A stretch of DNA of 64,000 bases from Nitrospirota bacterium (GTDB taxonomy: Bacteria > Nitrospirota > UBA9217): the NCBI GenBank assembly GCA_035623825.1, contig DASPSR010000063.1, positions 13,982 through 77,981 of the forward strand, written 5' to 3'. Under the pieces are notes generated by a model. That model made no database searches. It was given only the letters and a program-made list of their open reading frames with translations, and had not been told where the DNA came from. Each line of letters starts with the position of its first letter. Within the stretch, counting starts at the first letter, position 1. Below are positions 1-55,526 of the stretch, piece after piece. The position numbers were made by a program, and so were the translations under genes.

Positions 1-122
1 CATTTGCAGCTCCGATGCCGTCCGGCCGGATTCTCGTAAGATGCTGAACCCCTTGAGTTTTTCTTATAGATGAGTAAAAAAAATTAATACAGAACCAATC
101 TTGTCCTGTTATAATGTTTTGC

Positions 123-34398: not shown

Positions 34399-34434
34399 AA
34401 AAAAGCCTGACAGCGTATCAGCTGGCAGGCTTTT
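34399..34434. terminator. bidirectional terminator between convergent genes
   Basis: AAAAGCCTGACAGC-GTATCA-GCTGGCAGGCTTTT. Confidence 0.7.
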
Positions 34435-34469: not shown

Positions 34470-35053
34470 TCACCGTTGAGGCGGCGGGGCAGGTACTGAA
34501 GCCGGTATCTGATTCTTGACCGGCTTGATGCTCTTTAGATAGGCAAAGATCGCCTTGAGATCAGAGTCCGTCATTTTGCCAATGTCCTGCCAGGGCATGG
34601 GGGGCAAAATGTCGCGCCCTGCTTCCATGAACTTGCCGGTGCGCAGTGTCCTGATAAACAGCTCCTCATGCCAAACCCCTATGCCGGGTTCCGCGTCAGG
34701 CGTAAGATTGGAAGAATAGCTGATGCCCAGGGGCCGGCCCACCCTGTCAAATTGTTGTTGGTTAAAGCGCCCCATTTGTCCGGGCCGATTACACTCGGCG
34801 GAATCGGTGGCAGTTTCTCATCGGCAGGGTGCCCTGAAAGAAGCCGCGCCTCATCAGGCGCGGGGCCGTTCGGGGTCATTTTTTTTGGTGAGTGGCAGTC
34901 ATTGCATCCCCCCACGGTGGCAAGATATTGACCCCTCTCGATCATTGCCTTTTCGCCGGCCCCTTTCTGCTCTGAGCTGAACGAAACTCCTGTTATCAAA
35001 AAAAGGCTGGATAGACCAATAATCGCACCTCCTGCAATGGCTGTCCCTCTCAT
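34470..35053 (-). pseudogene. periplasmic c-type cytochrome, frameshifted (or sequencing error)
   Basis: Signal peptide plus CNDCH in one frame; ISYSSNLTPD...ILPPMPW...DLKAIFAYLKS in another; shift at a short G-run near 34727 (WAGPW/GISY). Confidence 0.75.
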
Positions 35054-52010: not shown

Positions 52011-52280
52011 AGTCGGCTTATTTTCTCCTTTGTGCGTGATTTATTATAACAAAGTATGGTCCGGCCGGCAACAGGAAGAGGTCGGTGATTTCAGGCTCCC
52101 GGGGAAGTGATCAACAGGGAGAAGGAACGACGCTCCGGATGCCAATTCATGGTCAACAGTAAGGAGCGAACAGAACTGCTGAAGGTTTTTTCATTTAAAC
52201 AATCTGCCGTCGGCGGCAAAGTCTGCATAGCGACTTTTATCGGAGCTCCGTGCGGGTCGACGGGAATCATTCGTACCGTT

Positions 52281-52502
52281 TCATTTCTTCGAGATCTTAA
52301 CCTTCCAGAATGCCGGACCCTGCTCGAGATATTCCCATTCGAAAAGACCTTCACGCTCATGCAAAAACTGATAGTAAAGCGGTTTCGGATCGTGGTCGTT
52401 GATCAGAACGAAGGCCTCTCCGCTCCGCAGATCTTCAAAGGTCTTGAATATGAGCGAGTGCCGCTCCCTGGGGATGATCGTTGTGACATTCAGCTCTTTC
52501 AT
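52281..52502 (-). CDS. DUF2249 protein
   Basis: PRERHSLIF, LINDHDPKPL, EQGP; RBS GGAGG. Confidence 0.88.
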   Translation of the reverse strand: MKELNVTTIIPRERHSLIFKTFEDLRSGEAFVLINDHDPKPLYYQFLHEREGLFEWEYLEQGPAFWKVKISKK

Positions 52503-52586
52503 CGTGGCCTCCCTAACATGGTTTTTGTTCGCTCGGGGAATATTATGATCTTATCGCAAATATTATTATGGTAGGGTAATGACTGC

Positions 52587-52602
52587 TATGATCTGCATCA
52601 TA
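52587..52602. promoter_or_regulatory. Crp/Fnr-family-like palindrome
   Basis: TATGAT-CTGC-ATCATA about 85-100 nt upstream of the DUF2249 start. Confidence 0.55.
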
Positions 52603-52980
52603 ACCTGATTACTGTTTTTTAAAAATATAAAACTATTGTTCTATTATTTTTCTGGCATATACATTGCTTATACTTAAGTAGTGGGTTAACATATGAATAT
52701 GCACGAAGAATATATAAAGGCCATCATTGCTGCTGGAATCCCGGTTCCGTATGACTTTGCCAGCCCAGACGATGATTACTTTTTTACTTATATTATCAGT
52801 ATGTTATACGACTCTGTTACATAATAAAGGACATTATGCGTTTAAGCGCATAGGGTGTGGATAAAAAGTAAGCTGGACATGAGTTCATTTAAGCGGGTGG
52901 TATTTCGGGGGGGAACACTTAAGAAATTTTAACGGCATCTGGTTATTTCACCAGATATCAGGCTAAAGAAAAGGTAGGTG

Positions 52981-53325
52981 ACCCTGGGCTTTGGGGCAGA
53001 GGCAATATTAATAAAGATGTCCGGTATGCGAGATGCGGTGTGCAAGCCCCCACAGTATCAGAGGGGGAAGCCTGAAGCGTCTGCCAAGGGCACAAGATTA
53101 ATTCCGGCCTTGTGTAACTCAAGACCCAGGGTACATCTTATGAAGCAGGTTTTCGTCTGACCGTGGTAATGCCCACGATCTGCCGCTCGACTGATACGCG
53201 GCTCATCGAAGAAGCTTGAAGGAGACCGCAGGCCACCTTCATTCACAGAGGCCCTTATAAAAGGGCCCACACAGCTTGATACGCTGTGCTTAAGACCCCC
53301 CGCCCTTCAGGGCGGGGGTGAGTCT
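52981..53325. ncRNA. candidate structured RNA or non-autonomous IS200/IS605-like element
   Basis: Multi-branched stem plus six consecutive hairpins ending in CCCCCGCCC-TTCA-GGGCGGGGG; no credible ORF. Confidence 0.45.
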
Positions 53326-53510
53326 CCCTTCGGAAGCAGTCATCCCCGCACGCTCCGTGGTTATAACATCCCCTCCAAACATTTCGTCACATTAGCAGAA
53401 GAGAAACCCATTTCGAGCGGGACAACCCGATTCCCTTCGTGTTTTGGACCGGTCCGTCGGTGAACATAAAATAATACGAATGCTTCTGCTAGTGGAGCAG
53501 CAGCATTACT

Positions 53511-55526
53511 CTATTTCAGTATCTGAAACAGATTATTATAGTCATCGGTCCATACGCGGAGTTCCTTCCTGAAGGGAAGTCGCGCGCCTACTCGCTCTAT
53601 TGTCGAAGAAGCGATCGGTTTTGTCGAGACAAGCGCCCATACGGCCCTGTAGATCTTGTGTTCATCGTCACTGTCATTCGTGATCAGAACCGCATACTTT
53701 CCCATTGCGCGGCGCAAGGTTTCTAAGACCGGCGCGAGGTCCAGGTGCTTGTTGGTAATGTGGAGCGCAAGGATGCCGTCGGGCTTGAGATGGCGTAAGT
53801 AGAGCTCCAGCGCCTGCAGTGTGAACAGATGCACGGGAATGGAGTCTCCTGAGAAGGCGTCAACCACGAACAGATCGAAATGCTGTTTTGGTTCCTGCTC
53901 AAGCGAAAGCCGGCCATCACCCAGTACGATCTGCGCGACCCCGCGACAATTCGCGAGATAGGTGAATTCACTGTACGCCAGCCTTTCCACAAGCGGATTG
54001 ATCTCATAAAAGCGGAAGACATCGCCGGGCTGTGCGTAGGCGGCCAATGAGCCTGCGCCGAGGCCGATTATCCCCACGCGAAGAGAAGAGTGCCTCAGGG
54101 ACTTAAAGGCAAGGCCAACGCCTGACTTACGGCCATAATAGGTGATGGGCAATCCCTGGCGCTTTGGCTCCGTGAACTGCACCCCATGGTCGACTGTCCC
54201 GTGGACGAGCATCCTGGTCTCGTCCTCTGTGCCTGCATCATATTCATTGACCCGCAGGCCTCCGTAAAAGTTCCGCAGCATCACCCGGGCCGATTGCGCA
54301 TAAGAAGAAATGTAATGCCCGGCCGACCAGACGACGTATATGGCCACGGCAAGACTGACGGCGACCCGCCATGTCCGGTAGTCGATCACAGAGAGCATCA
54401 GGATCGCGCAGGCCATGATCGCGATGGGGAGATCGAAGTATCCCGGCAGAGCGTTCGGTGCAACCAGACCCACAAGCACGCCTCCGATTGCGCCTCCGAT
54501 GGCGAGCATGAGGTAGAACGAAGTCAGGTGCCTGGGTGCGGGTTTACGCATCATGAGCTCGCCGTGGCAGAACATGCAGCAGATGAACAAACCGGCTGAG
54601 AAGGCGGGGATGACGAGCCTGAGATTTGTTTGGGAGTTCCAGTGATTGAGTCCGTAGGCCATGCCGCCGAGGGCCAGAACCATGAGCCAGGTGAATGCCT
54701 TTCGATGATAGAGCCGCTCATAATCAAAGCAGAGGACGAACGTCAGCAGATACAGGCTCAGCGGCACCACCCAGAGAAAGGGGATCGACGCCACGTTCTG
54801 GGTCAGGTGATTGGTCACCGAAAGAAGAAGTGTGGAACTGCAGGCAGCGAGGACCAGCCAGAGGATCTGCTCGCGCACCCGGGGAGGCCGGCAGCTTGCA
54901 GCATCCTGCGATGTTTCTTCGTTCTTTATGCAGGAGTCGATCACAGGACCTCGACAGCTCATGAACGCTGCGACAGCAGCGAGAACGACAAAGGCCGCAT
55001 AGGATGCGGACCAGCACAGCGATTGCTGGCGGAGCGTGGCGTTCGGCTCCACGAGAACGGGATAAGCCAGTAGCCCGAGGAGCGAGGCGAGGTTCGACAG
55101 CCCGAAGAGGCGGTACGGCAGCGACGATCTATGAATTCGAGCGTGCCATGTCTGGATGAGAGGACTCGTGGTCGAGAGCAGGAAGAACGGAAGGCCCACG
55201 GAAACAGTCAGGAGGCCGAGGATGCGCAGGATCGGATCATCTCCTCCGGAGGGTTTCCACGAAAGTGCGGGCGTTATCGGCAGCAGCAGGAGGCTCGTTC
55301 CGAGCAGGAGCGTATGCACCACGGCCTGCGTTTTTGGCTTAAGGGAGCGAATGGACCAGTGGGCATACAGGTACCCGCCGAGCAGTGCCGTCTGGAAAAA
55401 GAGCATCGCTGTGATCCAGACTGCGGCCGATCCTCCGAACCACGGAAGTATCATCTTTGCGATCATCGGCTGGACCTGGAAGAGCAGAAAGGCGCTTAGA
55501 CATATGATCGATGAGTGGAGGACCAT
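53511..55526 (-). CDS. membrane-fused spermidine-synthase-like methyltransferase
   Basis: About 12 TM N-terminal region; IGLGAG, YEINP, GDGR, DAFSGDSIPVHL, WTDD. Confidence 0.88.
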   Translation of the reverse strand: MVLHSSIICLSAFLLFQVQPMIAKMILPWFGGSAAVWITAMLFFQTALLGGYLYAHWSIRSLKPKTQAVVHTLLLGTSLLLLPITPALSWKPSGGDDPILRILGLLTVSVGLPFFLLSTTSPLIQTWHARIHRSSLPYRLFGLSNLASLLGLLAYPVLVEPNATLRQQSLCWSASYAAFVVLAAVAAFMSCRGPVIDSCIKNEETSQDAASCRPPRVREQILWLVLAACSSTLLLSVTNHLTQNVASIPFLWVVPLSLYLLTFVLCFDYERLYHRKAFTWLMVLALGGMAYGLNHWNSQTNLRLVIPAFSAGLFICCMFCHGELMMRKPAPRHLTSFYLMLAIGGAIGGVLVGLVAPNALPGYFDLPIAIMACAILMLSVIDYRTWRVAVSLAVAIYVVWSAGHYISSYAQSARVMLRNFYGGLRVNEYDAGTEDETRMLVHGTVDHGVQFTEPKRQGLPITYYGRKSGVGLAFKSLRHSSLRVGIIGLGAGSLAAYAQPGDVFRFYEINPLVERLAYSEFTYLANCRGVAQIVLGDGRLSLEQEPKQHFDLFVVDAFSGDSIPVHLFTLQALELYLRHLKPDGILALHITNKHLDLAPVLETLRRAMGKYAVLITNDSDDEHKIYRAVWALVSTKPIASSTIERVGARLPFRKELRVWTDDYNNLFQILK

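Follow-up and report, generated by a model that had tools for sequence, protein, structure and literature searches.

A probable 6S-derived RNA with a clade-specific 3' tail in a Nitrospirota genome

Few global regulators act directly on RNA polymerase, and 6S RNA (ssrS; Rfam family RF00013) is among them; why some bacteria keep more than one 6S RNA is, to our knowledge, an open question that has been studied almost only in Bacillus. The subject of this report is a structured block at positions 52976-53325 of a 64,000-nucleotide (nt) stretch of the genome of a Nitrospirota bacterium (GenBank assembly GCA_035623825.1, contig DASPSR010000063.1; the whole stretch is referred to as the window, and coordinates are those of the window unless another contig is named). 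The block lies in a non-coding gap and was analysed from the DNA sequence alone; the ten sequencing runs associated with the stretch are all of DNA, mostly peat metagenomes, and five of them may come from the source sample. Its first part, 52976-53139 on the + strand, is probably a lineage-specific, 6S-derived decoy of RNA polymerase that carries a clade-specific 3' tail. The working name class A is used here for this type of 6S-like RNA.

Mimicry of the open promoter and release through synthesis of a product RNA are established 6S biology (PMC4793215, in its available part, together with general knowledge of the field). In the same part of that source, two or more 6S RNAs are reported in a minority of bacteria, and 6S paralogues that bind the RNA polymerase holoenzyme are known. 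Ms1, an RNA of mycobacteria and Streptomyces, is also a 6S-like structured RNA that is not canonical 6S (PMC4191392 and PMC9130861, each in its available part). A third system for comparison is the omega RNA/reRNA of IS200/IS605 insertion sequences, since a preliminary description of the block had recognised an IS200/IS605-like end in it.

Architecture of the RNA and its likeness to 6S

Class A shares the rod of 6S RNA, in which the closing stem leads into a large central bubble and then into an apical arm, at lengths of about 165-185 nt, and the apical motif GGUGUGCA.GCCC..GGGAAGCCU.AA is common to class A and to the canonical 6S RNAs of the same genomes. Its genes, like those of 6S, come with a housekeeping-type promoter and a terminator of their own, have no gene linked to them and, as in 6S paralogue pairs such as 6S-1 and 6S-2 of Bacillus subtilis, stand beside another 6S RNA. 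The parts of the window's copy are arranged as follows.

52976-53139, + strand: the 6S-like RNA (class A), a rod-shaped hairpin of about 165 nt, scoring 148.9 bits with covariance model R1 (see below)
52976-52995, + strand: 5' strand of the closing stem, pairing with 53118-53138
52999-53003, + strand: 5' strand of helix P2 (GAGGC), pairing with GCCTT at 53107-53111; boundary of the bubble on the closing-stem side
53004-53018, + strand: 5' strand of the central bubble, with no conserved pairing and of variable sequence among homologues
53019-53024, + strand: 5' strand of helix P3 (GTCCGG), pairing with AAGGGC at 53086-53091; boundary of the bubble on the apical side
53028-53084, + strand: apical arm (P4-P6 and loop), with the 6S-like motif GGTGTGCAAGCCC..GGGAAGCCTGAA
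53052-53062, + strand: apical loop ACAGTATCAGA, which includes GTATCAG and varies freely across the 35 homologues
53092-53106, + strand: 3' strand of the central bubble, in which CACAAG may pair with CTTGTG at 53109-14 as an alternative hairpin
53118-53138, + strand: 3' strand of the closing stem, followed by CTTATG in the window and by a T-run in most homologues

The rod fold is supported by compensatory changes. It was drawn by hand on the 6S pattern as 44 pairs and scored on an alignment (A3) of the window and 34 further loci (35 rows, 175 columns). In this alignment 88.3% of the cells are paired, compared with 29-50% when the partners are slid by one to three columns, and 22 pairs have changes on both sides, compared with 12.2 +/- 1.9 in shuffles (0 of 500 as high). 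The covariation is carried by the closing stem, P3 and P4, because P5 and P6 are fixed by the pattern used for retrieval. The closing stem (helix 1) has 18 pairs, 11 of them changed on both sides, with 88.4% of its cells paired; five of the six pairs of P3 are changed in this way, with 74.3% of cells paired, as are four of the eight pairs of P4, while 96.0% of the cells of P2 are paired. RNAalifold, run on A3, recovered the outer stems and the apical stem and placed nothing across columns 31-47 and 123-139; the approximately 15 unpaired bases per strand between P2 and P3 are the layout of 6S RNA. Homologues and covariation, which the preliminary description had named as a check, have both been found for the 5' half.

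The block is regarded as a real structure because its folding beats that of shuffles, both as a whole and in each half, in agreement with the high degree of structure previously attributed to it. The minimum free energy (MFE) of a 361-nt block is -144.6 kcal/mol, compared with -124.1 +/- 6.3 kcal/mol for dinucleotide shuffles (z -3.27; 0 of 100 as good), and the minus strand gives a z of -3.79. When folded alone, 52976-53139 has a z of -3.50 (1 of 200 shuffles as good) and 53140-53325 a z of -4.02 (0 of 200). An outer stem formed by ACCCTGGG (52981-88) and CCCAGGGT (53125-32), the inner stems, six downstream hairpins and the loops GTATCAG (53055-61), CTGATAC (53191-97) and TGATAC (53277-82) had all been placed correctly in the preliminary description.

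The two helices that flank the bubble, P2 and P3, are near-identical (GAGG/CCTC) in most copies (A3 columns 26-30, 49-53, 117-121 and 140-144; in the window, strands 52999-53003, 53020-53024, 53086-53090 and 53107-53111). Pairing with swapped partners is possible in 80.9% of the cells, compared with 87.4% for the rod, and such a swap could be a built-in conformational switch or a coincidence. This swapped fold, a cruciform with local pairing in place of the rod, was tried and rejected, 53 of 500 shuffles being as high, compared with 0 of 500 for the rod.

By analogy with 6S RNA, a rod of this kind, with its long closing stem, an apical arm that would be inherited from 6S and an open bubble of approximately 15 x 15 nt that is bordered on each side by a short G+C helix, most likely docks in the active-site cleft of the RNA polymerase holoenzyme as a mimic of the open promoter and would thereby sequester the enzyme. 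The RNA would be released when the polymerase copies the 5' strand of the bubble into a short product RNA, for which 53004-53018 is the putative template, and the near-identical helices at the borders of the bubble would permit the partner swap needed for release.

The likeness to 6S RNA is also found in covariance-model searches. An Rfam scan of the window reached the gathering score of no family, and when the region and six homologues from the clade were scanned by E-value, only a partial 6S match and terminator-like sub-threshold matches appeared. Within the region the only Rfam likeness is to 6S (RF00013; 53031-53082, + strand, 26.2 bits, E 0.004), and at the loci of twelve relatives no Rfam 6S match was found at E <= 0.1. 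The genome has a canonical 6S gene elsewhere (contig C51:54985-55166, minus strand, which is locus L002:1501-1682; Rfam 97.5 bits), and this RNA also contains the apical motif, GGTGTGCA.GCCC..GGGA.GCCT.AA. The similarity is reciprocal, in that R1, built from class A, matches the canonical 6S RNAs of the family at 31-41 bits; of ten weak R1 matches that were fetched, Rfam identifies eight as canonical 6S (85-105 bits). R1 aligns to canonical 6S mainly via the apical half. The canonical gene on C51 has a TTGCCA..TATAAAGT-like region upstream and a T-run after it.

Copies, promoters and terminators in one Nitrospirota family

In its own genome (3.24 megabases, 89.65% complete) the element is single-copy by BLAST, covariance model and profile. 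In a first survey, 52850-53510 was compared by BLAST with 41 related genomes and matched 11, its own included. Within the family 10 of 24 members matched, and of the 16 genomes that represent ten other families none did. Two genus mates keep 52976-53317 at 76-77% identity, and eight genomes of other genera keep only approximately 52976-53140, two of them holding two copies. A scan of 185,579 species genomes with the apical-arm pattern found 81 stretches, 80 of which were listed as loci. By eye, 35 of the 80 are class-A RNA, almost all from entries titled as Nitrospirota or Nitrospirae metagenome-assembled genomes, and the other 45 are canonical-6S-like and come from Bdellovibrionota, Geomonas, Acidobacteriota, Myxococcota and a few Nitrospirota; locus L022, which is cut by the locus end, was left out of A3.

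R1 is the covariance model of A3, with matches of at least 85 bits counted as strong. The window copy is its sole match in the genome of origin, at 148.9 bits. Among 64 genomes of the family, R1 gave 54 matches of 85-175 bits in 37 genomes, with one copy in 24 of these carriers, two in 10, three in 2 and four in 1. The family genomes also gave one further, divergent match of 48 bits and approximately 20 weak matches of 31-41 bits, each of about 137 nt, and canonical 6S occurs exactly once in 60 of the 64. A wider, evenly drawn sample of 151 Nitrospirota genomes included 123 from outside the family; none of the 123 had an R1 match of at least 85 bits, and 20 had one weak match each (36-46 bits), presumably their 6S. 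Judged by sequence, class A appears to be an additional paralogue that accompanies canonical 6S in one to four copies per genome in a single Nitrospirota family.

Most class-A copies carry the signals of an independent gene. Of the 35 copies, 24 have a CTATA[CGT][TC] box (usually TGCTATACT) at a distance of 28-57 nt upstream of the closing stem (antisense control, 1 of 35), and 19 have the full TTGNNN-16..18-TAYANT promoter (antisense, 0 of 35), the promoter of multi-copy genomes being TTGACG-17-TGCTATAGT. A T-run of at least four within 12 nt after the stem follows 28 of the 35 copies, the window not among them. No neighbouring protein is common to more than five of the 35 loci, and those five are close orthologues. 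Because of these promoters and T-runs and the lack of a shared neighbour, class-A RNAs are taken to be free-standing small RNA genes on the + strand; the same boxes and T-runs of the wider family settle the strand of the element, which had been left open, as +.

Two groups of copies merit separate description. In genome G012, two class-A genes (C11:807121-807289 and 811083-811250; L136 and L137) lie 4 kilobases apart on the same strand, one with a TGCTATACT promoter and the other with a degenerate TGCTGTACG box. The copies of G062, G057 and G058 (L126-L135, one genus) have a conserved leader of approximately 55 nt, ..TTCACTAACGCTTAGTTCGACATTGAGA.., between promoter and closing stem, which suggests a processed precursor.

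The window's copy and those of its two genus mates lack the family promoter and have two other elements in its place.

52920-52929, + strand: upstream box TAAGAAATTT, found only in the window's clade
52939-52954, + strand: imperfect palindrome CTGGTTATTTCACCAG, which reads CTGGTGAATTTACCA in relatives; it lies 22 nt before the RNA and is conserved in the clade

The box is kept in 12 of the 13 other alignment rows of the clade, with TAGAAATTTA in L114 and TAGGAAATTT in L116; in other genera the class-A copies have no such box in front of them. Words similar to the palindrome, TGGTGAAATGACCA and GTCATTTCACCGG, occur upstream of L092 and L066. The palindrome may be an operator or an element of a promoter other than sigma-70. 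In the clade of the window the gene departs from the family norm in three respects: a different conserved upstream module replaces the usual sigma-70 promoter, the T-run is weak, and a string of hairpins of about 180 nt (53140-53318) follows, which would end in a terminator.

The clade-specific tail

The element is composite and consists of the 6S-like first half and a clade-specific tail. The single unit of approximately 350 nt that had been proposed earlier is not borne out, as only 52976-53139 is conserved beyond the genus. Two features make up the second half.

53140-53295, + strand: clade-specific structured tail, non-coding, with five of the six hairpins of the preliminary description
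53296-53318, no strand assigned: G+C-rich hairpin CCCCCCGCCC-TTCA-GGGCGGGGG, a candidate bidirectional terminator

When metagenome contigs were searched with a 21-mer of the tail, 11 loci were found, which together with the window and the two genus mates give 11 distinct sequences; the hairpin of the 21-mer is invariant by construction in 8 of the 11 tail rows. In all 11 distinct sequences the 6S-like RNA lies directly upstream. The tail was found only in G001, G003 and metagenome contigs of the same clade; a profile search found no second copy in its own genome and no tail in any of the 32 class-A rows of other genera. Coding of the tail was considered and rejected: the stop-free frames of the + strand lack a start codon and are broken by indels of 1, 2 and 8 nt, changes within them are mostly non-synonymous or follow the hairpins, and the + strand of 53161-53443 has no frame of at least 40 amino acids (aa) with a usual start.

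As far as its sequence indicates, the last hairpin probably terminates transcription in both directions, that of the + strand RNA and that of a convergent gene of 671 aa downstream. Its stem is kept through changes on both sides, and in 9 of the 11 homologues TTTC(C/T).. comes after it on the + strand and an A-run before it. In the window and L110, GTGAGTC takes the place of the T-rich tail, and the consensus terminator scan of the window did not flag the hairpin.

The tail as a whole is best read, again from sequence, as a read-through 3' extension of the 6S-like RNA or as a second small RNA on the same strand. It is less probable, though this is the alternative that fares best, that 53140-53318 contains no functional RNA and is conserved as the spacer and terminator region that separates the 6S-like gene from the convergent gene. 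The ability of the last hairpin to terminate both strands would suit a spacer, and so would the RNAalifold result, in which five hairpins are predicted and only 4 of 35 pairs covary; moreover, most relatives either lack two of the window's hairpins, GCCGC/GCGGC and CGTGG/CCACG in its window form, or have them in rebuilt shape. A mere spacer is harder to reconcile with the mean pairwise identity of the tail, which at 76.7% (approximately 73% without the retrieval 21-mer, by our own arithmetic) lies between that of the 6S-like part (87.7%) and that of the flanks (60-66%), and with the folding z of -4.02. In addition, the block AATGCCCAC is nearly invariant, and the CGCAGC hairpin stem is kept through change on both sides.

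A wider scenario can be drawn, although it is considered rather unlikely as a whole. The family may have expanded 6S into one canonical RNA and up to four shorter, differently promoted paralogues that serve as condition- or sigma-specific decoys, and the paralogue of the window may have exchanged its sigma-70 promoter and become fused to a structured 3' domain of about 180 nt. If true, the result would be a chimera of 6S and a regulatory RNA, for which no counterpart has been described among 6S RNAs. A canonical 6S with up to four divergent, separately promoted paralogues would offer a natural series for the study of decoy specificity and timing. These 6S-derived genes escape the current Rfam 6S model, and among titles and abstracts, the 6S survey of Wehner et al. 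(2014) and supplements being set aside, no account of such Nitrospirota RNAs was found. The hosts are uncultured bacteria of peat, soil and groundwater, for which any regulatory handle on their physiology would be new.

Alternative readings and neighbouring features

Several observations weigh against the descent of the RNA from 6S. The RF00013 match is local and covers model positions 73-119 of 187, which is the apical arm only, and its 26.2 bits are below the gathering cut-off of 46.4. In sequence, the closing-stem half and the bubble do not resemble canonical 6S, and class A is without the hairpin that the 3' bubble strand of 6S usually has. The rows of A3 were picked by eye from the apical-arm pattern scan, so that the invariance of P5 and P6 arises by construction, and the window's own MFE fold pairs part of the 'bubble' (AUUAAU with AUUAAU). 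Consensus scan and pattern search recognised no sigma-70 promoter in the 90 nt upstream of the window's copy, and its stem is followed by CTTATG and not by a T-run. Finally, G002, a genome of the same genus that is 99% complete, has only canonical 6S.

Class A differs from 6S RNA in being approximately 15-20 nt shorter, in its different closing stem and missing 3'-bubble hairpin, in its copy number, which reaches four per genome in addition to the canonical gene, and in its confinement to one Nitrospirota family in the sampled genomes; the window's copy differs further in its upstream module and its tail of about 180 nt. The RNA at 52976-53139 is therefore filed as a variant of 6S and not as a plain member, because it fails the Rfam score and differs in length, closing half, hairpin and copy number. 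The preliminary description had presented the block as an orphan and as a new structured non-coding RNA without an Rfam family. This stands in so far as no family threshold is reached and the homologues covary, and fails in so far as the 5' half resembles 6S RNA, a relative that had been missed.

Alternatively, the RNA could be a real structured small RNA with only an ancestral or convergent 6S apical arm, for example a protein sponge or an Ms1-like binder of core RNA polymerase. Such an origin would account for a 6S likeness limited to the apical arm and scoring below the Rfam cut-off, for up to four copies per genome, a number unusual for 6S, and for the presence of a normal 6S in every carrier genome that was checked. 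It is nevertheless rather unlikely, since closing stem, apical arm and a bubble of comparable size together make up the layout of a 6S RNA, since most copies have strong housekeeping-type promoters, and since 6S paralogues that bind the holoenzyme are known (PMC4793215, available part). Ms1 and class A can be likened by description and not by sequence. The length of Ms1, about 300 nt, is close to the approximately 345 nt of the window's 6S-like part and tail together, whereas the core RNA of class A is 165 nt in other genera. Moreover, Ms1 is actinobacterial, binds the RNA polymerase core and occurs in hosts said to be without 6S, whereas canonical 6S is present here.

A single RNA of approximately 350 nt spanning 52976-53325, with its domains joined by kissing loops as had been suggested previously, is improbable. 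Within the clade the whole block is conserved together in 11 distinct sequences, only CTTATG follows the closing stem in the window, and read-through is therefore plausible. The core of the pairing between loop 1 and loop 2 (AUCAG/UUGAU) is found in most clade members, and 73.9% of the cells pair, compared with 14-57% when the partners are slid. However, shuffles pair in 73.5% of cells, 330 of 500 being as high, and the contact shows no covariation; for loop 1 and loop 3 only 39.4% of cells pair. The duplex energy between the two halves of the window's block is -90.3, compared with -89.7 +/- 5.2 for shuffled tails (30 mononucleotide shuffles), so that there is no excess; two of ten clade members (L006 and L116) had 0 of 30 shuffles as low, which is not counted as support. 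The absence of the tail from all 32 class-A rows of other genera, and the promoter and T-run that most of the 35 copies have of their own, also argue against one large RNA.

A hairpin at 34410-34424 had been likened to those of the block. The resemblance holds for a 14-15-nt word, CAGC-GTATCA-GCTG, which recurs on the other strand in the hairpin at 53272-53286; it does not extend further, as the word at 34410-34424 is on the opposite strand and forms the centre of an ordinary terminator. The terminator-like hairpin spans 34403-34433, AAAAAAGCCTG..CAGGCTTTTG (AAAAAAGCCTGACAGC-GTATCA-GCTGGCAGGCTTTTG), looks bidirectional and sits 3' of a 101-aa frame at 34470-34775 (minus strand).

The suggestion that the block is a non-autonomous IS200/IS605 end encoding a trans-acting TnpB/IscB guide RNA is barely tenable, since the element is single-copy, matches no Rfam family of such RNAs, has a relative of 6S as its 5' half and has orthologous, syntenic homologues with partly conserved flanks and no variable guides. 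It shares with omega RNA/reRNA the form of a hairpin-rich non-coding stretch of a few hundred nt, and the genome does contain matches of the TnpB type (PF07282; four) and to the Y1 transposase (PF01797; three); all but one of the TnpB matches are paired with a transposase match as IS200/IS605-like units. The element is, in contrast, not beside tnpB, not repeated and unlike these IS copies. The matches lie on other contigs than that of the window (C24), as follows, and the earlier observation that the window holds no transposase or nuclease gene remains correct.

C67:91304-91504, C42:12296-13823, C19:1893-3553 and C44:50676-52336: TnpB/TnpA matches

At word size 7, a genome-wide BLAST search with the element and with each half gave only chance words of 13-19 nt, none of them near the TnpB/TnpA loci. 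The sequence beyond 53318, where a variable, guide-like flank had been envisaged, is alignable at 60% mean identity. A 155-aa frame, a PD40-repeat protein and an M28 peptidase recur upstream of the homologues; because these genes are shared and the flanks are partly conserved, the homologues are regarded as orthologues and not as transposed copies. The supposed mobile-element or guide-RNA candidate is thereby removed.

The gap that holds the block is flanked upstream by the 155-aa frame (52107-52574, + strand), which has no Pfam match, and downstream by the convergent 671-aa gene (53511-55526, minus strand). The product of the latter is a predicted membrane protein with no Pfam match at E <= 0.001, and its C-terminal part, judged by eye, is presumed to resemble methyltransferases of the spermidine-synthase type. 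Between the upstream frame and the block, 52575-52900 is A+T-rich (33-39% G+C, compared with approximately 55% around it) and holds a 43-aa frame (52693-52824, + strand) and sigma-70-like sites at 52618-52647. This segment is not alignable with the two genus mates and may be an insertion.

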